Shown here in pieces: positions 10,156 through 38,516 of a stretch of DNA of 64,000 nucleotides. A program made the translations under genes and the position numbers. This stretch comes from a virus (Duplodnaviria; Heunggongvirae; Uroviricota; Caudoviricetes), in the IMG/VR virus record IMGVR_UViG_3300044655_003531, positions 64,001 to 128,000 of that record. One strand, 5' to 3'. The number at the start of each line of letters is the position of its first letter. The stretch's first letter is position 1. The notes below the pieces were generated by a model, which was not told where the DNA came from, did no database searches, and saw nothing but the letters and a program-made list of their open reading frames with translations.

Positions 10156-10196
10156 GAGGTGGTGCTATTCAGGGAGGTATAACAGATATATAAGGC

Positions 10197-11180
10197 GTGA
10201 AACACCTCCAATCCTTTTCCCTGTTCGAAGCTCGGAAGACTTCAGATCTGACCCAAAAGCAAAAGACTTTCCTGACCAAATACACGCAAGGGACCTGGTC
10301 GGTCAACCGACAGACCGGTCTGGTCGATGTGGAAGGAGATTTTGACTGTAGTTACAGCGGACTGAGGTCTCTATCGGGCATCTCGTTCGGACATGTCAGT
10401 GGGAATTTCTCCTGTGCCGGCAACGATCTGACCTCCCTGGCCGGGGCACCCCAGACGGTGGGTGGGTATTTCTCCTGCGACAACAACCAGCTGACCTCCC
10501 TGGTCGGGGCACCCCAGACGGTGTGTGGGAGTTTCTTCTGTCAAGGCAACCATCTGACCTCCCTGGCAGGGGCACCTCAGACGGTGGGTGGGGTTTTCGA
10601 CTGTTCCGGCAACCAGCTGACGACCCTGGCCGGGGCACCTCAGAAGGTAAATAGGAGTTTCGGCTGTTCCGGCAATCGACTGATCTCTCTGGCCGGGGCA
10701 CCTCAGACGGTGGGTGGGAATTTCTACTGCGACAACAACCAGCTGACCTCCCTGGTCGGGGCACCTCAGACGGTGGGTCGGGATTTCTGGTGTTCCCACA
10801 ACCGGCTGACGACCCTGGTCGGGGCACCTCAGACGGTGGGTGGGTATTTCTTCTGCGACTCTTTCAAACTCCGGAGTGGGGAATGGAATCCCCAGGGCTG
10901 GTTGGCCATTCTGGCCACTGGAGATAGAAAAGCCCGGAGGCTGATTGTGACCCTGCCCATGTTCGATGCCGGCTTCTGGCTGCAGAAACTGAAGGGAGAC
11001 TTGAAGAAAGACGGTCAGGTGCTTCTGCAGCTGGCAGACCTCTGGGATAAGTCAGGCTGGGAGGAGCAGAGACAGGAGATCGAACAGAGACTCAGTCCTG
11101 AGCAGCTTCGGGTCATCAAGGCCCTAAAGACCAAATTGGGCTACGTCAATCCCTGGAAAGACTTTGACGGGATTGTCTAG
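10197..11180 (+). CDS. Variable LRR protein copy A (7 GAPQ repeats)
   Basis: GTG start 4 nt after GATATATA (10185-10192); MKHLQSFSLFE tag; 21-aa repeat V-x-G-x-F-x-C-x-x-N-Q-L-T-S/T-L-x-G-A-P-Q-T. Confidence 0.9.
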   Translation: MKHLQSFSLFEARKTSDLTQKQKTFLTKYTQGTWSVNRQTGLVDVEGDFDCSYSGLRSLSGISFGHVSGNFSCAGNDLTSLAGAPQTVGGYFSCDNNQLTSLVGAPQTVCGSFFCQGNHLTSLAGAPQTVGGVFDCSGNQLTTLAGAPQKVNRSFGCSGNRLISLAGAPQTVGGNFYCDNNQLTSLVGAPQTVGRDFWCSHNRLTTLVGAPQTVGGYFFCDSFKLRSGEWNPQGWLAILATGDRKARRLIVTLPMFDAGFWLQKLKGDLKKDGQVLLQLADLWDKSGWEEQRQEIEQRLSPEQLRVIKALKTKLGYVNPWKDFDGIV

Positions 11181-11193
11181 AGATATATAAGGC

Positions 11194-11976
11194 GTGAAAC
11201 ACCTCCAATCCTTTTCCCTGTTCGAAGCCCGGAAGACTTCAGGCCTGACCCAAAAGCAAAAGACTTTCCTGACCAAATACACGCAAGGGACCTGGTCGGT
11301 CAACCAGCAGACCGGTCTGGTCGATGTGAAAGGAGATTTTGACTGTAGTTACAAAAGACTGAAGTCTCTGCGGGGAATCTCGTTCGGACATGTCAGTGGG
11401 GATTTCTGGTGTTTCAGAAACCAGCTGACGACCCTGGCCGGGGCACCCCAGACGGTGGGTGGGAGTTTCTTCTGTGGCGGCAACCAGCTGAAGACCCTGG
11501 CCGGGGCACCCCAGACGGTGGGTGGGGATTTCTACTGTCAAGGCAACCAGCTGACTTCCCTGGTCGGGGCACCCCAGACGGTAAATGGGGATTTCTACTG
11601 TTTCAGAAACCAGCTGACGACCCTGGCCGGGGCACCCCAGACGGTGAGGGAGGGTTTCTACTGCGACTCTTTCGAAGTCCGAAGTGGGAAATGGAATCCC
11701 CAGGGCTGGACCGAGATTCTGGCCAAAAAAAATAGCAAAGCCCGGAGCCTGATTGTGATCCTGTTCGATGCCGGCTTCTGGCTGCAGAAACTGAAGGGAG
11801 ATCTGAAGAAAGACGGCCAGGTGCTCCTGCAGCTGGCAGACCTCTGGGATGAACCAGGCTGGGAGGAGCAGAGACAGAAGATCGAACAGAGACTCAGTCC
11901 TGAGCAGCTTCGGGTCATCAAGGCCCTAAAGACCAAATTGGGCTACGTCGATCCCTGGAAGGACGGGATTGTCTAG
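11194..11976 (+). CDS. Variable LRR protein copy B (4 GAPQ repeats)
   Basis: Same caps and repeat; GATATATA at 11182-11189. Confidence 0.9.
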   Translation: MKHLQSFSLFEARKTSGLTQKQKTFLTKYTQGTWSVNQQTGLVDVKGDFDCSYKRLKSLRGISFGHVSGDFWCFRNQLTTLAGAPQTVGGSFFCGGNQLKTLAGAPQTVGGDFYCQGNQLTSLVGAPQTVNGDFYCFRNQLTTLAGAPQTVREGFYCDSFEVRSGKWNPQGWTEILAKKNSKARSLIVILFDAGFWLQKLKGDLKKDGQVLLQLADLWDEPGWEEQRQKIEQRLSPEQLRVIKALKTKLGYVDPWKDGIV

Positions 11977-11990
11977 AGATATATAAGGGC

Positions 11991-13094
11991 GTGAAACACC
12001 TCCAATCCTTTTCCCTGTTCGAAGCCCGGAAGACTTCAGATCTGACCCAAAAGCAAAAGACTTTCCTGACCAAATACACGCAAGGGACCTGGTCGGTCAA
12101 CCCAGAGACAGGGCTAGTGGATGTAAAGGGAAGTTTTGCTTGTGGGGGTAAAAGATTAAAGAGCTTACAGGGCATCTCGTTCGGACATGTCAGTGGGAAT
12201 TTCTACTGTTCCGTCAACCAGCTGACCTCCCTGGCAGGGGCACCCCAGAAGGTGAGTGGGGATTTCTCCTGTTTCAGAAACCAGCTGACCTCTCTGGTCG
12301 GGGCACCTCAGACGGTGGATGGGCATTTTTACTGTGGCGGCAACCGGCTGACGACCCTGGTCGGGGCACCCCAGACGGTGGATGGGGATTTAGACTGTTC
12401 CTACAACCAGCTGACGACCCTGGCCGGGGCACCTCAGACGATGGATGGGCATTTCTTCTGTTCCTACAACCAGCTGACGACCCTGGTCGGGGCACCTCAG
12501 ACGGTGGGTGGGTATTTCTCCTGTTCCAGAAACCAGCTGACCTCCCTGTCAGGGGCACCCCAGAAGGTGGGTGGGAATTTCTCCTGTTCCGGCAACCAGC
12601 TGACCTCCCTGGCAGGGGCACCCCAGACGGTGGATGGGTATTTCTCCTGTTCCTACAACCAGCTGACGACCCTGGCCGGGGCACCTCAGACGGTGGGTGG
12701 GAATTTCTACTGCGACAATAACCGGCTGACCTCCCTGGTCGGGGCACCACAGACGGTGGGTGGGATTCTCCGGTGCGACTCTTTCACACTCCAAAGTGGG
12801 GCATGGAATCCCCTGGGCTGGACCAAGATTCTGGCCACTGGAGATAGCGAAGCCCGGAGCCTGATTGTGACCCTGCCCATGTTCGATGCCGGCTTCTGGC
12901 TGCAGAAACTGAAGGGAGACCTGAAGAAAGACGGCCAGGTGCTCCTGCAGCTGGCAGACCTCTGGGATAAGTCAGGCTGGGAGGAGCAGAGACAGGAGAT
13001 CGAACAGAGACTCAGTCCTGAGCAGCTTCGGGTCATTAAGGCCCTGAAGACCAAATTGGGCTACGTCGATCCCTGGAAGGACGGGATTGTCTAG
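11991..13094 (+). CDS. Variable LRR protein copy C (9 GAPQ repeats)
   Basis: Same caps and repeat; GATATATA at 11978-11985. Confidence 0.9.
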   Translation: MKHLQSFSLFEARKTSDLTQKQKTFLTKYTQGTWSVNPETGLVDVKGSFACGGKRLKSLQGISFGHVSGNFYCSVNQLTSLAGAPQKVSGDFSCFRNQLTSLVGAPQTVDGHFYCGGNRLTTLVGAPQTVDGDLDCSYNQLTTLAGAPQTMDGHFFCSYNQLTTLVGAPQTVGGYFSCSRNQLTSLSGAPQKVGGNFSCSGNQLTSLAGAPQTVDGYFSCSYNQLTTLAGAPQTVGGNFYCDNNRLTSLVGAPQTVGGILRCDSFTLQSGAWNPLGWTKILATGDSEARSLIVTLPMFDAGFWLQKLKGDLKKDGQVLLQLADLWDKSGWEEQRQEIEQRLSPEQLRVIKALKTKLGYVDPWKDGIV

Positions 13095-13125: not shown

Positions 13126-14007
13126 ATGAAAGAAAAAATAAGAAGGATTCAAAACTTCAGAGATTTTAGCAACTTGAATAGTTCCTTTAATTTAGATTTA
13201 GTTCTGGAAAAAATGGGTCGAAGAAGCCCAGTTGAATTGGCAAATTTACTGGAAAAATCCATCAAAGGTCTAGGAACGGACGAAGAACTGTTGCTGAAAA
13301 CTTTATTAGAAATTCCTGATTTGAAAACTCTGGGGGAAATTGATGCCATTTTTGCTAAATTTCCAGCCGTTTATTCATATAGAAGTGTTGGATCCCTTAT
13401 TAATTCCGAGTTAGGTTTTTTTGATCAGAAAATAATCGATGAAATAAAAAAACACACGGATCAATTGAAAGTCACAAATGACTTCTTACAAAAACAAGAA
13501 GAATCTCGTTTGAAGGACGAAAAAGTTAGAAGAACCGCGGAAGAAAGCATTAAATTGCACGAGGGTATTAAATATCAAATTTACCGGGACTCTAGAAAAA
13601 ATCTATCAATTGGAATTGGAATGAATCTAGAAAGATCGGATGCAGATACCAGGTTAAAGGAAATTGGGGCCAATCCAAAATTAATCAGGTCGGGAAAAGA
13701 GAAATTGAATGACAGTCAAATTCAGATTCTGTTTAAAAAAGACGTGGATAAAGCTATCGAAGATGCCAAATCTCTGGTTCCTGATTTGGGTCAACAGCCC
13801 TTACCGGTACAATGTGTTTTGATAGAAATGGCATTCAACCTCGGAAAGTCGGGCCTGTCCGAATTCAAAAAATTCTTATCTCACATCCAAAACATGAATT
13901 ACAAATTGGCTTCCCAAGAGATGCTCAATTCAACCTGGGCCAAGCAAGTGGGGAACAGAGCAAAAGAGCTGGCCAAAAGAATTGAAACTTACGAAGTAAA
14001 AAAATAA
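13126..14007 (+). CDS. Annexin-repeat + phage lysozyme (GH24-like) fusion with capsid-targeting-like N-terminus
   Basis: LEKSIKGLGTDEELLLKTLLEI matches the annexin K-G-x-G-T-D-E motif; C-terminal IKLHEGIKYQIYRDSRKNLSIGIGMNL...EMAFNLG...STWAKQVGNRA is T4-type lysozyme-like. Confidence 0.8.
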   Translation: MKEKIRRIQNFRDFSNLNSSFNLDLVLEKMGRRSPVELANLLEKSIKGLGTDEELLLKTLLEIPDLKTLGEIDAIFAKFPAVYSYRSVGSLINSELGFFDQKIIDEIKKHTDQLKVTNDFLQKQEESRLKDEKVRRTAEESIKLHEGIKYQIYRDSRKNLSIGIGMNLERSDADTRLKEIGANPKLIRSGKEKLNDSQIQILFKKDVDKAIEDAKSLVPDLGQQPLPVQCVLIEMAFNLGKSGLSEFKKFLSHIQNMNYKLASQEMLNSTWAKQVGNRAKELAKRIETYEVKK

Positions 14008-16922: not shown

Positions 16923-17612
16923 TTACACTCGCTTGATATCTCTAATCTTTTGAAGCATGAGGCCTCTACCTGCATAAAAGGTAAAATCCGCCTCCATCTT
17001 CCAATTTCCTTCTTTGGTGTGAGCCATCAACTCTAGATTTTGAACTAGATCCTGCGGTTCAAGTGAAACACACTTCTGGTCGGAAGAAGATTCAAAGTTC
17101 ATCTTTGCCATTTTATTACCAGTCCAGATAACAGCCCTCAAGTTGCTGATTTGGACATCCAGAATCTTGACCACTTGATGATCTTGAAGAAGTTCTAATT
17201 TAAAACAGGGTTTTCTGGAGTTGCCATGAGAGGTCAAAGTCAATAAACTGTGGGATTTACTTGCCAGTAAAGAAGGGATGGAGGGATTGTAAAGAGAAAA
17301 GATAGGGTAACAACCGGGATACTTGTGTCTTTTGAATACAATCCGCTGTCCTTTCAGGATATCCTCCAACTGGGAGAGCATATGGTCGACCGAGGTGAAA
17401 TTCTTGGACTTGAGGTAGACCACGGGATTTCTACTCAAAGAAACCCGATAGGGAGAAATTTCAATCCCCAGAGACAACCACCGTGTTTCTAAAAATTTGG
17501 CAATCTCTTCAAGATGATTCCGATCCGAGGTGGATGTTTTAGATTTATGGGTCAGAGAATTCTTAAACTTATCGATGAAATCATCAACCAAGGAAAACTT
17601 GTAGGCAGACAT
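16923..17612 (-). CDS. Hypothetical protein
   Basis: 229-aa ORF; no motif recognised. Confidence 0.65.
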   Translation of the reverse strand: MSAYKFSLVDDFIDKFKNSLTHKSKTSTSDRNHLEEIAKFLETRWLSLGIEISPYRVSLSRNPVVYLKSKNFTSVDHMLSQLEDILKGQRIVFKRHKYPGCYPIFSLYNPSIPSLLASKSHSLLTLTSHGNSRKPCFKLELLQDHQVVKILDVQISNLRAVIWTGNKMAKMNFESSSDQKCVSLEPQDLVQNLELMAHTKEGNWKMEADFTFYAGRGLMLQKIRDIKRV

Positions 17613-17635
17613 AGAAAAAAATTAGAACTGAAAAA

Positions 17636-18268
17636 TTATTCTGAATCAGGGGTCCGGTTTAGTTCTAAGGCCTTCACGATCTTCTTGTAAACGCTCTCGC
17701 TACCTTTGGCGGCATTATATTTTTTCAGTTTTCTGTTTTTTGTGTAGAGATCAATCAGGGGTGCAGTTTTTTCTTCATAGTCTCTGAATCTTTTAGCCAC
17801 CACCTCTGGATCTTTGTCGTCCTTCCGGTCTTCTCTTTCCGCCCTGGCAGTAATTCTGCCTTTGGCCGTTTCTTCGTCTATATCCAGATAGATGGTGTGG
17901 CTCAGGCCCAAGCCCATTTTTCCGAGCAAAGAATCTAACAGAGAGGCTTGTTTAACGGTCCGGGGGAATCCGTCAATAATGATCCCATCATCAGGATCAA
18001 TTTTCTTCAGTTCCCTCCGGATCATCTTTACAACTGTCTGATCGTCGATGAAATCACCCCGTTCAACTTTTTTCTTGATCTCCGGGTTTTTTGATTTCCT
18101 GAGCAATTCTCCGGTTGAAATGTGGTGGAAGCCTTGCCTATCTGCCAGTTTTTCGGAAAAAGTTCCTTTACCTGATCCCGGAGGTCCCATCACAACTAGA
18201 ATTTTTCCTTGAGAATCCGGCAATTCTCTTTCTATTAAAAAATCTGAGAAATTCTTAACTAAATCCAT
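17636..18268 (-). CDS. adk: Adenylate kinase family (short LID) with capsid-targeting-like N-terminal extension
   Basis: GPPGSGKGT P-loop, HISTGELLR, IIDGFPRT, R..DD; preceded by MDLVKNFSDFLIERE; GATATATA at 18273-18280. Confidence 0.9.
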   Translation of the reverse strand: MDLVKNFSDFLIERELPDSQGKILVVMGPPGSGKGTFSEKLADRQGFHHISTGELLRKSKNPEIKKKVERGDFIDDQTVVKMIRRELKKIDPDDGIIIDGFPRTVKQASLLDSLLGKMGLGLSHTIYLDIDEETAKGRITARAEREDRKDDKDPEVVAKRFRDYEEKTAPLIDLYTKNRKLKKYNAAKGSESVYKKIVKALELNRTPDSE

Positions 18269-18293
18269 GTGCTATATATCCAAACATAACTCG

Positions 18294-20003
18294 TTAAGAT
18301 TCACAGGCAACACACTGAAGATCGTTTAAATTTAATTTTTTTCTGGAAAAAGCCTGGGCAGAGTTCATAGAATGCTGGTAGTACAAAGTTTTAATCCCGA
18401 GCTTCCAGGCATCGATCAGAAGTCTGTTCACGTCTTTGGTTGGCATTTCAGGAGAAATCATCAGATTGAGAGATTGAGCTTGATCGATGTAATCCTGTCT
18501 CACAGCCGCCTGGTTGATAATGGCCGCCTGGTTGATCTCGGAGAAAGTTCTGAACACTTCTTTCTGATGGTCAGTCAACCAATCGAAATGCTGGACAGAT
18601 CCATCGTGCTTTTTGATGCTGTCCCAGATGTATTTGGTGTCTTTATCCAGTTCAACTAGCAATTTTCTCAAAACCGGATTCTTGATTGAGACCTTGATCT
18701 TGGCGACATCCTTAACAAAACAATTGGACCAAATTGGTTCGATAGACTGAGAAACCTGGCCTAGAATAAAGGCAGAAGATGTGGTGGGAGCAATGGCATT
18801 CAGAGTCACATTTCTCCGGCCGTATCCAACGAGCATTTCGGGTTCTCCGAAGATGGTGGCTAGCTGCCTAGAAGCAGCATAGGATTCATCTTTGATGTAT
18901 TTGAAAACCTCCACGTTCAACTGGGCACTCTCTTTGCAGTCAAAGGGCAGAGATTTGGATTGAAGCAAGGAATGCCAGCCCAATACACCTAGACCCAGAG
19001 CTCTCTGTCTTTTGGCAAAATTGTAGGCTCTAGACAAATAAAAGAATGCTCTTTGTCCTTCCACTGTGCCGTCCTGCCTCAGATTATCTATTTTGGTCAG
19101 AAATTCCGTTACCACGGCATCCAAGAAATAGACCATGGTTTGAACTGCATCTGTGCCTTTCCATTCGTCGTAATGAAGTAAATTCATCGAGGACAGAACA
19201 CAAACAAAAGATTCGTCATCAGAATTGTGCAAGGCAATCTCAGAACAAAGATTAGAATTGGAAATTTTAAGATCTTTATCCCGATAAACATCCGGTGACT
19301 TGGAGTTCATGGTATCGCTAAACATGATGTAGGGATAACCTATCTCCCCTCTTCTCTGAATGACTTTAGCCCACACCGCTCTTTTTTCCTGATCTCCCAA
19401 GGTCATCTTGGTCATGAAGTCGTCAGAGACCGTCACGGCGTGGGTCAAATCCTGAATGGGAAATCCCTCGGTTCCGATGTCTAAAAACTCCAGAATGTCC
19501 GGATGGTCGATGGGCAGATAAGGTGAAAATCTGCCTCTTCTGGTCGAGCCCTGGGAGATGTTGTCCACCACACTCTGAAAAAGGTTCATGAAGTGGACTG
19601 CCCCTGGGGCGTGGCCGTTATCACTGACCGTGGCTCCTCGACCTCTGATGTTGCCAAAATAACCTGAAGTTCCTCCTCCCATCTTGCTCATTTCACCTAC
19701 TTCTCCTTGGGTATACAGGATAGACTCGATATTGTCCATTAGATGAGAACCAAAGCAAGAAACGGGGAGACCTCTTTTTTTCCCAAAATTAGCCCAAACT
19801 GGAGAGGAAAGGGAGTACCATCCTCTGCCCATATAATCAAAGAATTTGTCGGAAAATCCGGGCATGCCCAGCAATTTTTCTGCATGATCGGCAATGACTT
19901 TTACCCGGACCCCGGGATCTTCATGCTCGGCTAAATAGCCCCTTTTGAGAAAAGTCATGGATTCCCAATTGATCCAGTCGAAAGGTTTTCTGTCCCCTGT
20001 CAT
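18294..20003 (-). CDS. nrdA: Ribonucleotide reductase alpha subunit (class I, no ATP cone)
   Basis: LSSPVWAN, PVSCF, GGGTS, SNLCSEI, GLGVLG, IAPTTSS, KTLYY, C-terminal CVAC. Confidence 0.96.
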   Translation of the reverse strand: MTGDRKPFDWINWESMTFLKRGYLAEHEDPGVRVKVIADHAEKLLGMPGFSDKFFDYMGRGWYSLSSPVWANFGKKRGLPVSCFGSHLMDNIESILYTQGEVGEMSKMGGGTSGYFGNIRGRGATVSDNGHAPGAVHFMNLFQSVVDNISQGSTRRGRFSPYLPIDHPDILEFLDIGTEGFPIQDLTHAVTVSDDFMTKMTLGDQEKRAVWAKVIQRRGEIGYPYIMFSDTMNSKSPDVYRDKDLKISNSNLCSEIALHNSDDESFVCVLSSMNLLHYDEWKGTDAVQTMVYFLDAVVTEFLTKIDNLRQDGTVEGQRAFFYLSRAYNFAKRQRALGLGVLGWHSLLQSKSLPFDCKESAQLNVEVFKYIKDESYAASRQLATIFGEPEMLVGYGRRNVTLNAIAPTTSSAFILGQVSQSIEPIWSNCFVKDVAKIKVSIKNPVLRKLLVELDKDTKYIWDSIKKHDGSVQHFDWLTDHQKEVFRTFSEINQAAIINQAAVRQDYIDQAQSLNLMISPEMPTKDVNRLLIDAWKLGIKTLYYQHSMNSAQAFSRKKLNLNDLQCVACES

Positions 20004-30566: not shown

Positions 30567-30746
30567 CTAAGCTGCCTTGGATTTTTGATCTTGTATATCA
30601 ATTCTGATCTGCTGGGCAAGTTTTTTCAGTTCTTGCATTGCAACTCTTACCCGAGTACCAGCGGCTTTATTTCCTTTTTCAGTGAATTTCTGGAATTCAG
30701 GTTCAATTTGAGAGATGAGATTTTTAATTTCTTGAAAAGCTTCCAT
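30567..30746 (-). CDS. Histone H1-like (Hc1-type) nucleoid protein, 59 aa; missing from the ORF track
   Basis: MEAFQEIKNLISQIEPEFQKFTEKGNKAAGTRVRVAMQELKKLAQQIRIDIQDQKSKAA; GNKAAGTR signature; own GAAAC-N17-TATAAT promoter. Confidence 0.85.
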   Translation of the reverse strand: MEAFQEIKNLISQIEPEFQKFTEKGNKAAGTRVRVAMQELKKLAQQIRIDIQDQKSKAA

Positions 30747-30799: not shown

Positions 30800-31333
30800 C
30801 TAGCGATTCAAGACGTAAACTCCTTTTCTAGATCCGGGTTGCAAATGCCATTCATCACCTAGGATCGAAATTAACATAGATCTAGCGTACTCCTCGTAGT
30901 TATTCAGAACTAGATTTTGATTCATCTCATCCACTATTCTGATTGTTTTTGGGTTTTTCTCCAAGTAATTCAAAAGACATTTGCCAATCTGCTTGTAGAG
31001 CCTCGCCAATTCTCCTCCCTTAAGTTTAAATTTATTGGAGTTAGCTTCGGGTAAATTCTTGGTGTTCTCAATTGCAATGTCTTCGATCACCTCGGGCTCG
31101 ATCTGGTTGAGATTAATGACGGCATAAGAATTTTTTGGACCCTCCATATTTTCAAATCTGGAGTATTTGCCAATCAAAAAAACATAACCTTGCTGGTCTC
31201 CTTTTTCTTTGTCTATCTGGAAAAAATAGTAACATAGATCCCCGTCTTTCTTAAAGAGAAAGGGCAAGGTTCCAAACCCATCGGCTTCATTTAGCTGGGT
31301 AATGAATTGAGAATAAGGAAGAATAACTTTCAC
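30800..31333 (-). CDS. Capsid-tagged hypothetical protein
   Basis: MKVILPYSQFITQLNE; GATATATA at 31351-31358. Confidence 0.7.
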   Translation of the reverse strand: MKVILPYSQFITQLNEADGFGTLPFLFKKDGDLCYYFFQIDKEKGDQQGYVFLIGKYSRFENMEGPKNSYAVINLNQIEPEVIEDIAIENTKNLPEANSNKFKLKGGELARLYKQIGKCLLNYLEKNPKTIRIVDEMNQNLVLNNYEEYARSMLISILGDEWHLQPGSRKGVYVLNR

Positions 31334-31372
31334 TGTGGATTGTTTTATGTTATATATCTCTAGAATTTTGTT

Positions 31373-33322
31373 TTATTCTTTCAAAGCGGACTTCAAAATC
31401 TCGTAATTGTTTAAAACAGCTTTAGGTAACATTTTTTTGGCAGCTGTAAAATTGCCTTCCTTCAATTTTGTCCTCACCTCTGTGGCAGACATGGATCTTT
31501 TACTGACGTGAAGAGCGAAATCAGAAGGTAATTTATCGTGCAGCTCTGTTTTTTTAATGTACTCAAACTGTTTACCGTAATCATCCGCCCTGTCTTCTCC
31601 AGATCCCACCAGATGAGGGATGTAGCCCTCTTCGACCAATCTATTAACAACTGAACCCAATAGACCCAATTTGACAATCTTGTAACCGGCAAAGTCTTCT
31701 GGATAAGCTTCCATCAAGGAATCCATGTACTGCTTGATAATCTCTTCATTAAATGGGGAATTTTTATTTCTGTTGTGACCTGGATAAACGACCACAACAA
31801 AAACAGGAAAATCGTTTTTTTTCTTCATCTCTTGGGCCATCTTCAAATGTCCCAGATGGAAAGGTTGGAATCGTCCGAGCATCACATTGATGTTTTTCTC
31901 CTCCTTTTTCCCCGTAGATTTTTCTTCTGCTTCTTCAACCGTGTTTTCTTCCCGTTGCTCTAGGTATTCTTCGTGTTTTTGATCGATGGTCTCTAACTTG
32001 GAAATGAATTCGTCGAAGGAAAAGAGAGGATTTTCTTCCTCTTCATTGTCATCAAGTTCTTCTCTGAGATAATCTACGGAAGGAGAATTTATTTTCTTGA
32101 ATTCGAGGAAGCTCGTAAAATCTTGTTTTTCTTGCTCGTTGATTTTTTTCTTGGCCACATAATTTTTGATTTTCTGAACTAGTAGATTGAATTGTTCTAA
32201 AGTACCGGCTTTTACCAGTCCCGAAGCTCGAGTCTTGATTTTTCTGAATGAATTGAGCATCAACTTGAACAAGGACTCAAAGGCCGGGTCTTCTTCGACC
32301 CATTTTAGAACTCTCCTGTCCGAAATGAGTTGTTTGTTCAATCTGAATTCTTCTTTCTTCAGATAATCAGGTTCATCAAAATCAGTGCCTTTATACTTCT
32401 CCGAGTACTGACTCAGAAACTTGGCAAACACGTCCGACATATAGGAGATGTATCTTTCCTCCTCAGAATCCCCTTCTGTTTCGAAAGATTTTACCCCCTT
32501 TTGGAGAATGTAGTTCATAACGTCCAAAAGGGTCAGACCCAGAAAATCACTGGGTTTTCTTTCCATCTGTTGTTGGGTCTTTTCCTTGGCCAACTCCGTG
32601 AAGATGGGATCAACCATCTTGGCTAAAACTGTTTCGCTTTCTCTATCCGGATGACCAAACCTAAACACGATTCCCTCCACATCTTTATCCAGGTTATCGT
32701 TCAGAGCAGTTTTCTCTAAAGCTGGGTTAAGGACCGAGATGATAAACCTCACGAAACTTTGAGTGGAAAATTTTCGGGTTAGCTCTTTGAAGGGGGTAGA
32801 CAAAAATTCCATCAAGGCAACTTTTTGATCGGGCTGAAGCAGGCCCTGAAAAATAATAGGACTTCTTTCCACTCCCAAAAGATCAGCCCATTCGTCCAGC
32901 TTTTCTTTCTTTTGAAGGGTTCTGGCGACTTTGCCTCCCGGCGCCATTTGATGAATGTAAGAAAGAATCAGATTATTTTTGGGCACCCGATCATAGACTA
33001 TTTCAACTGGCTGGGTGTTGGCGAAATACTCTAGGCCAAATCTCCAGCCTCTGGGGATTCTCTCTATAATGTGAGGGGGAAGACTCGTGATATAAGAAAT
33101 AGGTTTCTCATAGTATTTCATCAAAGTACGGTCAACTAGGGTAATTGGATTCCTTTGATCCCGCCGATAAAATTTGAAATTCCCAGTCTCTTGATCCCTC
33201 TCGAAACTAAAGGCAGAACCATCCATCTTTTCATTGATGGTAACAAATTCCCTGAAAAGAGAATTGATAAAATTTTCTCCTTTTTTGTGGTAAAGATCGT
33301 ATAGATGATTAATGCCAGACAT
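31373..33322 (-). CDS. Fusion: ligase-superfamily nucleotidyltransferase (RNA ligase-like) + NMNAT/cytidylyltransferase-like (HxGH) domain
   Basis: Motif I EKMDG, motif III-like RFGLEYF, motif IV DVEGIVF, motif V LAKMVD; C-terminal MLGRFQPFHLGH and SMSATEVR. Confidence 0.8.
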   Translation of the reverse strand: MSGINHLYDLYHKKGENFINSLFREFVTINEKMDGSAFSFERDQETGNFKFYRRDQRNPITLVDRTLMKYYEKPISYITSLPPHIIERIPRGWRFGLEYFANTQPVEIVYDRVPKNNLILSYIHQMAPGGKVARTLQKKEKLDEWADLLGVERSPIIFQGLLQPDQKVALMEFLSTPFKELTRKFSTQSFVRFIISVLNPALEKTALNDNLDKDVEGIVFRFGHPDRESETVLAKMVDPIFTELAKEKTQQQMERKPSDFLGLTLLDVMNYILQKGVKSFETEGDSEEERYISYMSDVFAKFLSQYSEKYKGTDFDEPDYLKKEEFRLNKQLISDRRVLKWVEEDPAFESLFKLMLNSFRKIKTRASGLVKAGTLEQFNLLVQKIKNYVAKKKINEQEKQDFTSFLEFKKINSPSVDYLREELDDNEEEENPLFSFDEFISKLETIDQKHEEYLEQREENTVEEAEEKSTGKKEEKNINVMLGRFQPFHLGHLKMAQEMKKKNDFPVFVVVVYPGHNRNKNSPFNEEIIKQYMDSLMEAYPEDFAGYKIVKLGLLGSVVNRLVEEGYIPHLVGSGEDRADDYGKQFEYIKKTELHDKLPSDFALHVSKRSMSATEVRTKLKEGNFTAAKKMLPKAVLNNYEILKSALKE

Positions 33323-33330
33323 GGTATGAA

Positions 33331-33762
33331 TTATTTATGGGGAGGAAAACTTGTTGGAAAATTTGGAAAAAAAGATAAAGGACCGTATTCTTGAAGTTCA
33401 AAATCAACATATCCTCTGGACTCCAAAAAAAGAAGACTATTGAGAATTTTGCCAATAATTAATTTAGATTTATCATGTAATGGTGAGTTCCAGGTCATTA
33501 AGAGCAAGGGAACATAAACGGATAAAGGAGGAGGAGAAAAACCAAAATTGATCAAATCGTAGACTGATTTTTCCATCGTGTAGATAATTTCATCTCCAAT
33601 CTGAACTTCGTAATCTCCGGTTGAATTGGCCATGACAGAACCATTTAAACCCAGCACTGTCCTAAACAAAATGACTTCGGGGTGTTTAAAGATGGATTCT
33701 ATTCCATCTCCTTCCAGCAAGAAATCCAAAGTGGTGTAGAAAAGATTAGGGAAAACGTTCAT
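33331..33762 (-). CDS. Hypothetical protein
   Basis: 143-aa ORF overlapping the upstream stop; no motif recognised. Confidence 0.55.
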   Translation of the reverse strand: MNVFPNLFYTTLDFLLEGDGIESIFKHPEVILFRTVLGLNGSVMANSTGDYEVQIGDEIIYTMEKSVYDLINFGFSPPPLSVYVPLLLMTWNSPLHDKSKLIIGKILNSLLFLESRGYVDFELQEYGPLSFFPNFPTSFPPHK

Positions 33763-34684
33763 TACTAACCAGTTTTTTTATTTCCCAAGGAATGTCGTGA
33801 TTGGTTCTCTCTAAGTATCTGACAAAATCTTCCACTATAGATTGTAGTTTATCGGCATGGATAAAAGTCGGTTTTTTTATTAAAGACCAGACATCCTCGA
33901 AGGTCTTAACATCACTCGGTCTAACACCAGAACCAAAAAGTAGATCTAGCATCTTTTGAGGATCCCTGGTGACTAGAAAGGTGCTATCTTCTAAAATTTT
34001 AGGTCGGGAGAGTCTTTTTGTTGCTCCCCGATAGGTCTTACGATTCTTATAAACGCCATCTCCTAGTTTGAGAACATACCCAGTATAATCCATGATTTGC
34101 CCTTCTTTATCAACGGAATCTACATCCTTCAAGGCCGAAAGAATGGCCTGGAAAAGCCAATTCCTGTGGGCAGATTTATACTTGGATTCTTTTTTTCTCT
34201 GGTCCGGGGAGTAAAAAATAAATTTAGCCCAATCCATATCCGCAATTGGAATCAGATCAAGTTGAACCGTGCCGTTCTTGATGTTCCCCTCAATGGGCCA
34301 TTCAACGCTGACTATGTTGATCCCTTTAAACATTTTGATCTCCGGTTTGTAACCCAAAATGTCGGGGAGTTGGTCCTTCAGTTTCTCGGTCATTACATCC
34401 AACACCTTGGATTCAGGAACACCCCATTTTTGGGCCAGGAAGGGTTTAGAAACTCCCAAATCCACGTCCCCGGAAGTGTCATCTGGACTTTCTTTTTTTC
34501 CAATGCTGCCAATGAGCAAAAAGTCCCTGTTTAATTTTCCATCGCCCAGCAAGGGAAAAAGGGCTTCCCCTAAGTGGGTCAAAGTTTTGGCCACTTCATC
34601 CTCTCGGATCTTTCTAGAACTGCCAATAGCAGCCCCTCCTTCATTTAATTCCATATATTGTGTGTAGGTATAAATCATGCTCAA
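33746..34684 (-). CDS. Pol-beta superfamily nucleotidyltransferase with capsid-targeting-like N-terminus
   Basis: IGSIGKK..TSGDVDL (GS..DxD) and third acidic VQLDL; N-term MIYTYTQYMELNE. Confidence 0.75.
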   Translation of the reverse strand: MSMIYTYTQYMELNEGGAAIGSSRKIREDEVAKTLTHLGEALFPLLGDGKLNRDFLLIGSIGKKESPDDTSGDVDLGVSKPFLAQKWGVPESKVLDVMTEKLKDQLPDILGYKPEIKMFKGINIVSVEWPIEGNIKNGTVQLDLIPIADMDWAKFIFYSPDQRKKESKYKSAHRNWLFQAILSALKDVDSVDKEGQIMDYTGYVLKLGDGVYKNRKTYRGATKRLSRPKILEDSTFLVTRDPQKMLDLLFGSGVRPSDVKTFEDVWSLIKKPTFIHADKLQSIVEDFVRYLERTNHDIPWEIKKLVSNERFP

Positions 34685-35235
34685 ATATCGTAAAATCTTC
34701 TGGCCCCTTTAATGTAACTTGAATACACCCTGCCTTCTTCAGAGCTGGGAGAATCTAGATCAAAATCATCTCCAAATGTTCTTCTGCCACTATCGTAGGC
34801 TCTACTATAGAAATCCTCATAGTCTTCTCTTGTGTTTCTGCCACTTTTTGTAATGGTTTCACCCCATTTTTCTAGCATATCTTTCTTTTGTCTCTTAAGA
34901 CTCTCCAGAGAATCCCCACCTCTAAAAGGCATTTTAAAAACATCAACAATAGATTTAGCCACCTTCTGAACAAGGGACAGGCCCATTCGGACCAATCTTA
35001 GCGGAGCTCCACTCGGATCTTCTGCCATAGCTTGAAATCTTGCTCTGGCTCCCGAATCTGAAAATTCACCAATTCCCGTTTCCGATTCTTTTCTTGAATA
35101 TCGATCCTCTATCCTTCTCTCTATTTCTTCGAACTTACTCCAATCGTCCTCTTTATCAAAATTGGATCTAAACCTGCTTCTTTCTCTGTTTATTGCCTCA
35201 GAAAACATGGAAAAGTTTTTTAATCTGGGAGTCAT
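34681..35235 (-). CDS. Capsid-tagged hypothetical protein
   Basis: Start MTPRLKNFSMFSEA (35235) follows GATATATA at 35254-35261. Confidence 0.7.
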   Translation of the reverse strand: MTPRLKNFSMFSEAINRERSRFRSNFDKEDDWSKFEEIERRIEDRYSRKESETGIGEFSDSGARARFQAMAEDPSGAPLRLVRMGLSLVQKVAKSIVDVFKMPFRGGDSLESLKRQKKDMLEKWGETITKSGRNTREDYEDFYSRAYDSGRRTFGDDFDLDSPSSEEGRVYSSYIKGARRFYDI

Positions 35236-35270
35236 AAATCTGATTTTTTGATTTATATATCCCAACTTGT

Positions 35271-36794
35271 TCACAATTTAACCTTGAAGACTTTGTATTT
35301 GAATTTCTCTTTCTTATAAATTTGCATTCGAACGTCCCCGTGTTTCATCAGGTAGTTAAGGTATTTAGGAGTAGAAAAGTCATCCACAAAATCGATTACG
35401 TTCACTTTCTCCTTGCCCTCCATTTTTCTCATACCCCTGCCCAGACTTTGCTTGATCAAAACCTCGCTTTTGTATGATTCAACCAAGAAAATGTTATGAA
35501 GATTGTTGATCGAAATTCCAGTTGAAAATGTACCAAAGGTTGCTACCAGAATCTTATTTTCTCCGTCCTTCATTCTCTCTTTGTATTCCTCCCTTAATTT
35601 TTCATCAGTGTCTCCATCCACGTAGAAAACCTCTTTCGTACTATCTATTTCTCTCAGTCTATTCCAGATTTGCTTTCCGTATTCATCCTTTACGGACTGA
35701 AAAAGCACCAGGGAGTTCTTGGATGTTTTCGAAATAAAATCAACGATATATGAAATTCTTTTTTCACTCTCTATCACCAATTTTCTTTCGATGTTGTAGA
35801 TGTCGTTGCCCTCTAAATTCTGGGCAGAGAATTTCAACTGGGCAAGTTTATCCTTGATCTCCTGATCTAGCCAATCGAGGATCACAACCTTAATAGAAAC
35901 AGGGGTGGCGTGGTCGTTCCGAAAAAGAAAATCAGGAGAGATCTCGACCAACACGGGGCCCAGATACTGCTGGATGGTCAGGTGATCGGCAGAAGACCGA
36001 TTGGTCAAGGTTCCGGTTAGACCAAATCTCCACCCCGTGTGCATGCATTTGGATAGAATTTTTTTGATGGAAACTGAATTGGAATGGTGACACTCGTCCA
36101 CAAAAACAGCATCCACGTCCTCGAAAAATTCCTTTTCCTGCTTGACCAGAGATTGAAAGGTGCCAATGATCAGATCGCAGCCTTCTCTCATTTTACTGCC
36201 TCCTCCTATCTGTTGGATCTTAACCCCCAATTCATCGATCCCGTAGTCAATGAAATCGTCATTGCCCTGAAACACAAGGTTAGTACTAGGAACTACAATT
36301 AAAAACTTTTTTATCATGCCCCTCTGCTTGAGAAAGGCAAAAATCATGAAGGCAATCAGTGTCTTACCCGAAGAGGTTGCTATCTCCGACACAGAATACC
36401 TAAATTTAACAATCTTCCAGGCTGCCTCAATCTGGTAGTCCCTGGGTTTCATCTCCTTATTGGCAAAAAATTCATTGACCCAAGAGGTAAATTCCTCCAG
36501 TGTCAGGTCTGAAAAAATAAGGTCCTCCAGTCCCTCAATCTCCACCTCGTAACCGTATTCTTTTCCTAATTTATGAATCTCCATCCAAAGACCCGTTGGA
36601 ACTTTCCACACCGGTCCTCTTTTATCGACGAAACTGATGGAACCATCCCACAGTTTTTTCTTTACCAAGGGATGAAAGAACCAATTGTTTACCTTTCGGG
36701 TCAGAGAAATCTCAACCTGCTTTTTTTCGACTTCAGGGGTCAAAGAATTCAGTAACAACCATTGTTTATCATCTGACACTAAAAATTTTAACAT
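35271..36794 (-). CDS. uvsW: UvsW-like SF2 DNA helicase
   Basis: PRDYQ, IATSSGKT, DECH, GLTGT, TFGTFSTGISI, QSLGRGMR. Confidence 0.92.
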   Translation of the reverse strand: MLKFLVSDDKQWLLLNSLTPEVEKKQVEISLTRKVNNWFFHPLVKKKLWDGSISFVDKRGPVWKVPTGLWMEIHKLGKEYGYEVEIEGLEDLIFSDLTLEEFTSWVNEFFANKEMKPRDYQIEAAWKIVKFRYSVSEIATSSGKTLIAFMIFAFLKQRGMIKKFLIVVPSTNLVFQGNDDFIDYGIDELGVKIQQIGGGSKMREGCDLIIGTFQSLVKQEKEFFEDVDAVFVDECHHSNSVSIKKILSKCMHTGWRFGLTGTLTNRSSADHLTIQQYLGPVLVEISPDFLFRNDHATPVSIKVVILDWLDQEIKDKLAQLKFSAQNLEGNDIYNIERKLVIESEKRISYIVDFISKTSKNSLVLFQSVKDEYGKQIWNRLREIDSTKEVFYVDGDTDEKLREEYKERMKDGENKILVATFGTFSTGISINNLHNIFLVESYKSEVLIKQSLGRGMRKMEGKEKVNVIDFVDDFSTPKYLNYLMKHGDVRMQIYKKEKFKYKVFKVKL

Positions 36795-37248: not shown

Positions 37249-37452
37249 TTAAAATAAGCCTCCTTTGCTCTTTTTATTTTTTCCTAGCTCTACCATCTGG
37301 CAGCGATTTACTTTTTTGACAGGTTTTGGCATTTGAAAGTTTTCTTCAATGTTTTCTAAATTGTCCAGATCTTGAACCTCGTGCAAGGTACAAGGAAATT
37401 TTAGTTTGGGAGGTGATTTTGGTTTCTCCTCTGGTGTGTAGTTGATGAACAT
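37249..37452 (-). CDS. Small hypothetical protein
   Basis: 67 aa; stop/start overlap with the primase gene. Confidence 0.55.
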   Translation of the reverse strand: MFINYTPEEKPKSPPKLKFPCTLHEVQDLDNLENIEENFQMPKPVKKVNRCQMVELGKNKKSKGGLF

Positions 37453-38516
37453 TAAGTTGTAACGAACGAAACTAGATCTAGTACCTCGGAGGTAAAGTAT
37501 CCATCGAATCTTTTTATTTTAATTGATTTTTCTCTCAAATAATTAACTAGATCATTCAAATCCCATTTTCTATTTTCAGGTATAGAATTTTCTTCCAGAA
37601 ATTTTTTCCAGTTAAAAACAGAATGTCCTTGCGTCAGAAGCTCCGATGTTTTCCTTCTGCCTGCATCATCCCAGTCATACCAATATCGGACATCATCAAA
37701 CTCGAAAGGAAATTTGTTTTCTACGGAGCAAAGGGCAACTGAATTCTTCCAAAGCCAGGCATCCATTGGCCCCTCGAAGATGGTGATGGTGTGGTCAAAA
37801 GAAACCTGAAAGAGGTTGAACACATGGGAAACTGGATCTATCTTTGTGCATTGTTTCAAGAACTCGACATCTCTAACCCCTAAAAGCTTTTCCCAAATGC
37901 CGGACAACTTGTAAGTGTAATATTTAGATCCCCCCTTTTGCAGGGACATGTTTCTCAATTGGAGACCCACCACCTCATTATGATTGGTCAAATTAAATAG
38001 AAATAATCTCTCCTGTTTAGGGTCCCAGGCAAATCTGTGATCTGTAGGCTGATTCCTACGGCGTAAATATGATTCGACTTGAGAACCTTCTACTTCCACT
38101 AGAGAAAGTCTTTTCATCAATTCCTTTCGGGAAATGACATATTTCTTGAAATCAAGATTGAAAAGCAGAGAAAAATCAAAAGAACCATATAAAGTTTTTC
38201 TTTTTTCTTTATTTTCTCTAATGATATCTAGAATATCTTTTTTTTCTTCTTGAGTCAAATCTGAGGCCACTCCAAAATCGCGAAAAAAAGCGTACCCATC
38301 TTTGAAAACCCCACATCCTCCGTTGTAACATTTGTAGGCAAAAGTGTTGGTGTAAAAATTGCCTCTTTTCTTTCTGGCATCGTCACTATCACCACAATAG
38401 GGACAAGAAAAATTTAATCTATTACCGGCTTGAAAAATTTTCTGTTTTCCACCTTCACCCGGAAAGGCATTATGGAGTGAATGTCCAATCAGAGATTTAA
38501 TTCTTTCTAGTTCCAT
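37452..38516 (-). CDS. DNA primase (gp61-like)
   Basis: Zn finger FSCPYCGDS...YKCYNGGC; TOPRIM FEGPMD and WYDWD. Confidence 0.88.
   Translation of the reverse strand: MELERIKSLIGHSLHNAFPGEGGKQKIFQAGNRLNFSCPYCGDSDDARKKRGNFYTNTFAYKCYNGGCGVFKDGYAFFRDFGVASDLTQEEKKDILDIIRENKEKRKTLYGSFDFSLLFNLDFKKYVISRKELMKRLSLVEVEGSQVESYLRRRNQPTDHRFAWDPKQERLFLFNLTNHNEVVGLQLRNMSLQKGGSKYYTYKLSGIWEKLLGVRDVEFLKQCTKIDPVSHVFNLFQVSFDHTITIFEGPMDAWLWKNSVALCSVENKFPFEFDDVRYWYDWDDAGRRKTSELLTQGHSVFNWKKFLEENSIPENRKWDLNDLVNYLREKSIKIKRFDGYFTSEVLDLVSFVTT

Follow-up and report, generated by a model that had tools for sequence, protein, structure and literature searches.

What use would a tailed phage have for three nucleotidyl-transfer chemistries encoded by two near-adjacent genes and transcribed late? 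The question is raised by a minus-strand gene block in bases 64001–128000 of IMGVR_UViG_3300044655_003531, a single IMG/VR virus record of 150,077 bp; this whole 64,000-nucleotide stretch is hereafter the window. A first-pass annotation had reported here a covalent-lysine ligase fold, an HxGH domain and a Pol-beta nucleotidyltransferase, and fold searches and located motifs bear out all three (an RNA ligase, an HxGH transferase and a Pol-beta palm). On its predicted structure the nucleotidyltransferase is a minimal enzyme resembling family X DNA polymerases (PolX), probably carried inside the phage particle, while the other gene fuses an RNA ligase module to a domain resembling NMNAT. We tentatively favour a pair that performs fill-in-and-seal repair of nucleic acids with an accessory adenylyltransferase, an explanation to which we give somewhat less than an even chance.

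Four abutting or overlapping minus-strand genes run from 35235 to 31373, headed by a single GATATATA promoter (35254), in the order tagged 184-amino-acid (aa) protein, tagged 312-aa nucleotidyltransferase, 143-aa protein and 649-aa fusion. The block comprises the following features, where CTS stands for capsid-targeting sequence and pLDDT for the predicted local distance difference test score.

35254..35261, minus strand: GATATATA late-type promoter box (exact motif), heading the four-gene operon
34681..35235, minus strand: 184-aa tagged protein, function unassigned; probable start ATG 35235 (the longest open reading frame, 197 aa, begins at 35274)
33746..34684, minus strand: 312-aa family-X-polymerase-like nucleotidyltransferase (palm and thumb, from predicted structure and motifs) with a CTS-like propeptide at residues 1–15
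33331..33762, minus strand: 143-aa protein, poorly conserved, overlapping the end of the nucleotidyltransferase gene by 17 nucleotides (nt)
31373–33322, minus strand: 649-aa fusion open reading frame (motifs EKMDG, EGIVF, AKMVD and GRFQPFHLGH)
32579..33322, minus strand: fusion residues 1–248, RNA-ligase adenylyltransferase domain (fold search and motifs)
32093..32578, minus strand: fusion residues 249–410, helical C-terminal domain of the ligase module (helices modelled with high confidence)
31898..32092, minus strand: fusion residues 411–475, acidic linker (pLDDT < 50) with a second tag-like motif, LFSFDEFISKLE
31373..31897, minus strand: fusion residues 476–649, HxGH (HIGH) adenylyltransferase domain, archaeal/NadM-NMNAT-like (PF01467, TIGR00125)
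31351..31358, minus strand: second GATATATA promoter box (exact motif), heading the tagged 177-aa gene, 17 nt upstream of its GTG start
30800..31333, minus strand: 177-aa tagged protein with its own GATATATA promoter, function unassigned

The window has 15 copies of GATATATA where 1.2 are expected, a count that none of 100 shuffles reached, and most of the copies stand between a few and about 25 nt upstream of gene starts, before tagged genes and before baseplate-wedge-subunit and tail-fibre-like operons. This enrichment and placement uphold the earlier description of a late-type operon. The exact T4 late box TATAAATA is not enriched in the window (3 against 2.1 expected), and the empirically found GATATATA was therefore taken as the box instead. 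Of the three promoters first proposed, those at 35254 and 31351 are exact GATATATA instances, whereas the site at 33332 (CATAAATA) is not, so that the fusion has no promoter of its own. Because the four genes overlap or abut, co-transcription of the fusion with the PolX-like gene is the simplest assumption. Terminators and sigma-70 promoters were not found above chance in the block. Separately, the GATATATA box ends only 1–6 nt before the start codon in several tagged genes (10185–10199, 11182–11196, 11978–11993 and 513–527), and agatatataaggcGTG, which precedes three leucine-rich-repeat (LRR) paralogs, is an example of a box almost touching the start codon; the corresponding mRNAs would be leaderless or nearly so.

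The 312-aa protein was modelled by AlphaFold with a pLDDT of 89.5, confidence being low over residues 1–20. Its eight best matches among 48,161 PDB representatives are all family X polymerases (Z 8.8–9.2, 164–194 residues aligned), covering TdT, African swine fever virus (ASFV) Pol X, the Pol beta palm–thumb, Leishmania Pol beta, Pol lambda and Thermus PolX, whereas terminal uridylyltransferases (TUTases), poly(A) polymerases, CCA-adding enzymes and CD-NTases reach Z ≤ 6.8 over some 100–120 palm residues only. In VIA alignments of the predicted model, residues ~11–263 match Pol beta 102–335 and all of ASFV Pol X; 164 of the 176 ASFV residues are covered at 18–21% identity (Z 9.2–9.6), palm and thumb superpose nearly throughout, and the GS, DxD and D of ASFV Pol X are present as GS 59–60, DVD 73–75 and QLD 141–143. 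G59, S60, D73, D75 and D143 are invariant in 43 sequences, as is E15-G16-G17. The stretch FIFYSPD...YKSAHRNW we take to resemble the Pol beta/lambda thumb signature LLYFTGS...N..R, its aromatic FY pair presumably occupying the YF position.

The 8-kDa lyase and fingers domains are missing, and only one helix (28–45) precedes the palm; both are missing from ASFV Pol X as well, so a minimal PolX is compatible with their absence. Judged from the model, the protein is a minimal palm-plus-thumb, family-X-polymerase-like enzyme, and the earlier Pol-beta label was right but too general. It differs from family X in having no detectable sequence similarity to it, an extra C-terminal helical region (263–308) and a capsid-targeting-like propeptide, and in that its family is phage-only and made up of uncharacterised proteins. 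In BFVD it falls in this family of uncharacterised phage proteins, which ranks ahead of giant-virus PolX proteins. Among viruses, ASFV uses Pol X together with a ligase to repair gaps, and in the giant virus PgV a ligase-like domain is fused to a PolX (PMC5537341). An RlaP identity was ruled out, PF10127 having no match in the contig at E ≤ 1. As a side observation, the PolX-like match carries one in-frame TAA in two complete relatives (G002:C1:233420-234340 and G003:C1:124299-125207), which may reflect an overrun past the true start, a broken gene or recoding.

The N-terminus of this enzyme may direct it to the prohead. The protein starts MIYTYTQYMELNE, followed by the invariant GG, a pattern kept in homologs and also found in the T4 internal proteins IPII and IPIII, which both start MKTYQEFIAE; common to the T4 CTS and the tag here are aromatics three apart and then [IL]-x-E, here on many unrelated proteins with late-type promoters. 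Written as [ILVM]xx[FY]xx[FY], a simpler and position-restricted pattern adopted after a first regular expression gave no significant result (p = 0.1), the tag is present at 20 of 191 N-termini against 59 of 1980 internal windows (p = 7e-6), and tagged N-termini are concentrated in kb 55–106 of the genome. It occurs on the 312-aa, 177-aa, 184/197-aa and 447-aa proteins, which substantiates the claim of a tagged nucleotidyltransferase flanked by capsid-tagged genes, and on a phage lysozyme, a peptidoglycan-binding protein, an adenylate kinase, a RimK-like ATP-grasp enzyme and the three LRR paralogs. Three of these are located as follows.

13126–14007, plus strand: phage lysozyme with a tag-motif start
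17636–18268, minus strand: adenylate kinase (PF00406, E = 2e-36) with a CTS-like N-terminus MDLVKNFSDFLIE and its own GATATATA box
17365–18831 of locus L002 (genome 61365–62831), minus strand: RimK-like ATP-grasp enzyme with a tag-motif start

The adenylate kinase would be a nucleotide-handling member of the presumed packaged set. In comparison with the T4 internal proteins, the putative cargo here numbers ~14–20 proteins and includes enzymes (PolX-like, adenylate kinase, lysozyme, ATP-grasp), and the motif, unlike the T4 CTS, is also found internally in the fusion linker and at the C-terminus of standalone ligases.

That the enzyme family is virion-borne is experimentally supported through Agrobacterium phage Atu_ph07. 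The best BFVD match of the 312-aa model is a 277-aa protein of this phage (Foldseek TM 0.70/0.78), mapped through a Sinorhizobium phage Phosso homolog to FDI40_gp065 (gp65), a ‘hypothetical protein’ in which the catalytic residues are kept; hhalign of the 312-aa family against gp65 gave a probability of 98.2 (E = 5e-14, 251 columns). Gp65 (32.16 kDa) was detected in purified virions by electrospray ionisation tandem mass spectrometry, with 10 unique peptides and 36.8% coverage, as one of eleven neighbouring virion proteins of ~29–41 kDa, gp55–gp65 (Attai et al. 2018, PMC6102473, Table S5). Neither gp64 nor gp66 shows paralogy to gp65. As annotated, gp65 differs from the 312-aa protein in starting at the GG after the presumed cleavage site, and so is untagged, and the ligase–HxGH fusion was not found in Atu_ph07. 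A T4 gp21-type prohead protease (PF03420) scores above cut-off in all four complete relatives and was not found in this record, which CheckV puts at 61% complete. By analogy, the PolX-like enzyme is probably carried inside the particle of this phage. Packaging, as first proposed, has experimental backing for the nucleotidyltransferase family; the fusion bears no tag at its N-terminus and no promoter of its own.

The fusion begins with an RNA ligase module. Its residues 1–440, modelled by AlphaFold from 60 sequences (mean pLDDT 90.1), returned RNA ligases as the first 40 Foldseek matches in the PDB, led by full-length T4 RNA ligase 2 (Rnl2; E = 9e-8). VIA-align of residues 1–248 against T4 Rnl2, Naegleria NgrRnl and trypanosome REL1 gave Z 10.7–11.0 and a root-mean-square deviation of 3.5–3.9 over 186–197 residues, compared with Z 7–8.8 for DNA ligases. 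The motifs lie at residues 31–35 (EKMDG), 216–220 (EGIVF) and 234–238 (AKMVD), and in 60 homologs the catalytic columns are kept as E31 in 60, K32 in 52, G35 in 48, E98 in 40, E/D216 in 58 and K235 in 56. EK 31–32 of motif I aligns with E34-K35 of T4 Rnl2, and setting VLAKMVDPIF of the fusion against VAIKCKNSKF of T4 Rnl2 (NC_000866), by strand register and not by superposed coordinates, equates K235 with K225. The module thus has in common with T4 Rnl2 (rnlB/24.1) and PF09414 (REL1, DraRnl/NgrRnl) the adenylyltransferase fold, EKxxG motif I, motifs III and IV and a helical C-terminal domain; it differs from T4 Rnl2 in its marginal sequence similarity, the absence of the second motif V lysine, a larger helical domain, an F-x-x-F end and the added HxGH domain. 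The marginal similarity shows in PF09414 (16.7 bits for the fusion against a cut-off of 27, and 27–32 bits for homologs P0256, P0243 and P0244) and in a weak hhalign alignment of the ligase family with T4 Rnl2 (probability 3.4, residues 6–163); the ligase-module profile found no match among PDB sequences.

More than 590 close metagenomic relatives of the fusion are 633–639 aa long, and a library clustered at 50% identity holds 709 representatives at E ≤ 0.001, among them standalone ligase modules of ~400 aa and longer forms of 860–1290 aa. The ligase module ends in an F-x-x-F peptide (DFTSFLEF) within a conserved [ST]-F-x-[DE]-[FY] pattern, and the same peptide forms the very C-terminus of the ~400-aa standalone ligases. 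A tag-like motif is present in the linker of 33 of 55 fusion homologs, and in many fusions a second copy, here LFSFDEFISKLE, stands before the HxGH domain. Patterned like the N-terminal tags, these peptides may serve to recruit the ligase to the prohead, or to dock it on another hub. Complex prediction of the ligase module against the HxGH domain returned a score of 0.00 and is uninformative either way.

Many fusion homologs also carry or precede a third module of 350–650 aa (P0241, P0244, P0247, P0252, P0265–P0269; L058:11979-13481; L039:11949-13034), for which no Pfam family was found. One version, located after the fusion in some relatives, has a weak calcineurin-like phosphoesterase match (E = 5e-4), and a 361-aa gene after the fusion in some relatives gave weak restriction-endonuclease-like leads in Protein Atlas.

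Other ligases in the lineage help to place this one. A replicative DNA ligase identity was ruled out, as relatives have a separate ATP-dependent DNA ligase; an NAD-dependent DNA ligase was searched for and is absent. Rnl1-type and Rnl5-type ligases are located in a separate early region of the genome, so that, together with the separate DNA ligase of the relatives, the fusion ligase is a distinct third kind. With these two ligases elsewhere in the genome, a classical tRNA-repair set was ruled out for the operon. KptA/Tpt1 was searched for and is absent, and a KptA-linked reading was dropped.

The C-terminal domain of the fusion matches PF01467 at 26–28 bits (cut-off 21) and TIGR00125 at 37.4 bits (cut-off 27.7). 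A profile of 31 homologs ranked the NMNAT of M. jannaschii (1f9a) top, at E = 4e-8, with NaMNAT and PPAT next. Its GRFQPFHLGH (483–492) and SATEVR (near residue 612) are both kept in most of the 31 homologs, and the likeness to NMNAT runs along the whole length (GRFQPFHxGH, an (N/S)PF element and SxTEVR...LVPKAV). The archaeal and NadM enzymes (MJ0541, 1f9a; F. tularensis NadM, 2qjt) have in common with it GRFQPFHxGH, (N/S)PF, SxTE(V/I)R...(L/V)PKAV and a length of ~170 aa; the domain here differs in scoring below equivalog cut-offs, in having no Nudix or kinase partner and in being joined to a ligase. Most members match the archaeal NMNAT and NadM families of NCBIfam (26 and 25 of 31), at about a tenth of the cut-offs. 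Being nearest to NMNAT yet far below the equivalog cut-offs, the domain is called NMNAT-like only and is, on sequence, not a demonstrated NMNAT.

The nearest protein-level relatives of the record are the ‘huge phages’ LR756500-504 and the Prevotella Lak megaphages, and its complete IMG/VR relatives are 319–434 kb long with direct terminal repeats; on these grounds the record is part of the genome of an uncultured jumbo phage whose core is of the T4 type. No DNA-level match to the block came from megablast against 50,697 phage records, and ARAGORN found no tRNA genes in the window or in the contig. The block, on the minus strand, is part of a replication and recombination block, in which a UvsY-like protein stands between these two genes:

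37452–38516: primase, in the replication and recombination block next to the operon
35271–36794: UvsW-like helicase

Conservation of this order was surveyed in 79 related IMG/VR loci found with a single-protein query. The kept order is primase–UvsY–UvsW–p197–PolX–(p143)–fusion–p177–small basic protein–p73–p189, and the PolX-like gene is present beside the fusion in 67 of the 79 loci, so that the expected co-occurrence in relatives holds, apart from the most distant ones, where the gene is missing beside the fusion. The T4 genome (NC_000866, 108000–122000) reads rnlB–24.2–24.3–hoc–inh–(segE)–uvsW–uvsY, with rnlB ~3 kb from uvsW; the gene for T4 Rnl2 thus lies near uvsW and uvsY with hoc and inh between, which mirrors the order uvsY–uvsW–tagged genes–ligase here. 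The placing of an Rnl2-type ligase gene close to uvsW/uvsY, separated by late genes associated with the head, may be an old T4-like arrangement, and the fusion ligase is a structural and positional counterpart of T4 RNA ligase 2. Folds, catalytic motifs, promoter, gene order and the virion presence of a homolog all have direct support.

In proposing fill-in-and-seal repair we infer what the substrates are, that packaging takes place in this phage and that the enzymes are in any way coupled. In this mechanism the PolX-like enzyme would be loaded into the prohead through its T4-CTS-like first 15 residues, its propeptide would be cut after Glu15 by the gp21-type protease of the lineage, and the enzyme would be delivered with the DNA. 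It would then extend a 3'-OH at broken duplex nucleic acid, leaving a 3'-OH/5'-phosphate nick for the Rnl2-like ligase to close. Adenylate chemistry would come from the HxGH domain, in the simplest case as NAD+ made from nicotinamide mononucleotide (NMN) and ATP, with the lineage's NadV as partner. Such a pair would be separate from the phage's classical tRNA-repair set. The annotation's phrase ‘add nucleotides, religate’ remains the most coherent logic.

Several observations weigh against this explanation. The PolX-like gene is not beside the fusion in the most distant relatives (fusion 40–45% identical) or in huge phage LR756500, whose genes between helicase and fusion have no homology to those here; because the two are neighbours only in one clade that shares an order of >10 genes, their adjacency is weak evidence of a pathway. 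The 312-aa family has no Pfam match (43 members), no PHROG match and no relevant PDB profile match, so the PolX-like assignment derives from predicted structure only. Where T4 Rnl2 has its second motif V lysine (K227), the family carries V or I, and some members S or L, which makes classical self-adenylylation by the ligase module uncertain. The HxGH domain reaches only 24.9 of 181.2 bits for TIGR01527 and 28 of 127 for PRK01153, the NCBIfam NMNAT equivalogs. The N-terminus of the fusion is untagged and, as only one of the two enzymes may be packaged, they are possibly separated in time and place. That they work jointly is thus something we infer, and to our knowledge the biological role of T4 Rnl2 itself is not established.

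An alternative, which we consider unlikely while still giving it real weight, is that NAD+ salvage is the main function: the HxGH domain would be a phage NMNAT acting with a distant NadV-like NAMPT, in the manner of NARP2, against NAD+-depleting defences, with the ligase and the PolX-like enzyme as unrelated passengers. Phage NAD+ reconstitution pathways are established (10.1101/2024.02.11.579819; PMC13464706). The whole-length proximity of the domain to archaeal/NadM NMNAT argues for this, and a salvage role of the domain is kept alive by the presence of a NadV-like NAMPT in three of the four complete relatives and by the 434-kb relative, in which the fusion is the sole match to CTP_transf_like (HIGH-type transferases). 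NAD+ rebuilding was among the proposals of the first-pass annotation. Against it, the HxGH domain falls far under every NMNAT equivalog cut-off and lacks the Nudix or kinase partner of NadM or NadR. Moreover, in contrast to NARP2 (NAMPT and NMNAT), the NAMPT of the relatives is not adjacent to the fusion but 70–290 kb off; one complete relative keeps the fusion without NadV, and no NAMPT was found in this 61%-complete contig. Finally, hundreds of proteins keep the fusion, an argument that it is important for ligase and HxGH domain to be joined.

We are more doubtful still of an injected RNA or tRNA end-repair kit, the annotation's first hypothesis, in which the packaged nucleotidyltransferase would restore the nucleotides lost when tRNAs are cleaved and the ligase would reseal, as proposed for RlaP nucleotidyltransferases accompanying phage RNA ligases. 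In structure, every one of the ligase's best matches is an RNA ligase, and the kinetoplastid TUTase and REL1 pair works in this way. Phage RNA ligases are also known to travel with Pol-beta-type nucleotidyltransferases (PMC7824862): in jumbo-phage RNA ligase and RlaP neighbourhoods the ligase likewise lies beside a nucleotide-adding enzyme of the Pol-beta superfamily, and a phosphoesterase-like gene occurs in some relatives. The module here, however, is late and beside replication and recombination genes and not in an early RNA-repair island, and its nucleotidyltransferase is not RlaP, matches no Pfam family in 43 members and has a thumb of the DNA-polymerase-X type. The phage already has Rnl1-type and Rnl5-type ligases in its separate early island, and late transcription fits early abortive-infection nucleases poorly unless the enzymes are injected, while the ligase lacks an N-terminal tag.

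It is improbable, in our judgement, that the ligase reaction is split, the ligase module having lost the lysine that acts on the pyrophosphate side of ATP and depending on the fused HxGH domain, which would adenylylate the 5'-phosphate or present NAD+ as AMP donor. The V or I found across the family at the position of T4 Rnl2 K227 is suggestive here, since T4 Rnl2 K227Q seals only pre-adenylylated ends; NMNAT chemistry is itself the adenylylation of a nucleotide 5'-phosphate, and the fusion is conserved in hundreds of proteins. Against such a relay, 52 of 60 homologs retain K32 as nucleophile, many standalone ligases without an HxGH domain have the same single-lysine motif V, and the linker is long and disordered. 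An equally improbable extension joins this adenylate relay to recruitment of the fusion to the prohead and its injection with the PolX-like enzyme, to mend the incoming genome. Here the tag-like motifs of the linker would recruit the fusion to the prohead, where it would be cut into two enzymes; the NMNAT-like domain would provide the ligase with adenylate, either through a 5' end adenylylated beforehand or through NAD+; and the genome would be mended ahead of all phage gene expression.

Synthesis of a decoy signalling nucleotide or protein NMPylation, the remaining suggestion of the first-pass annotation, is very improbable, for although CD-NTases and OAS have the same GS...DxD...D palm (Z 5.5–6.5 to CdnE), CD-NTases, OAS and cGAS match only its ~100–120 residues, compared with 164–194 including the thumb for family X, and the architecture is accordingly not cGAS/OAS- or Fic-like.

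The operon promoter lies inside the longest reading frame of the first gene, with an ATG 18 nt downstream, and the 184-aa protein therefore probably starts at that ATG (35235); its N-terminus MTPRLKNFSMFSE matches the tag pattern, homologs occur in 53 of the 79 loci, and no Pfam, PHROG or Protein Atlas match was found. The 143-aa protein is present in only 17 of the 79 loci and has no family match in Pfam or PHROG. The 177-aa protein, whose N-terminus VKVILPYSQFITQLNE matches the tag pattern, lies directly downstream of the fusion in 73 of the 79 loci and in homolog P0243 (866 aa) is joined in frame to the fusion C-terminus; it is functionally linked to the fusion. Protein Atlas gave weak DUF6934 and GNAT-like leads only for it. 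Just downstream of its gene, at 30567–30746 on the minus strand, a 59-aa lysine-rich protein is encoded, kept in 70 of the 79 related loci.

Phages that carry RNA ligases with nucleotide-adding partners, and phages that rebuild NAD+, are known already. Three features look undescribed: minimal polymerase-X-like enzymes that form a family spread across phages, with one member detected in virions; the joining of an enzyme of this kind to a capsid-targeting peptide of the T4 type; and the widespread fusion, in hundreds of metagenomic proteins, of an Rnl2-like ligase minus one catalytic lysine with an NMNAT-like domain. Should the PolX-like enzyme leave the particle together with the DNA, a tailed-phage capsid would be delivering a polymerase along with the genome, raising the question of which defects in the incoming DNA call for filling in. 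The module may also help to understand the role of T4 RNA ligase 2, whose gene occupies the corresponding position in T4.

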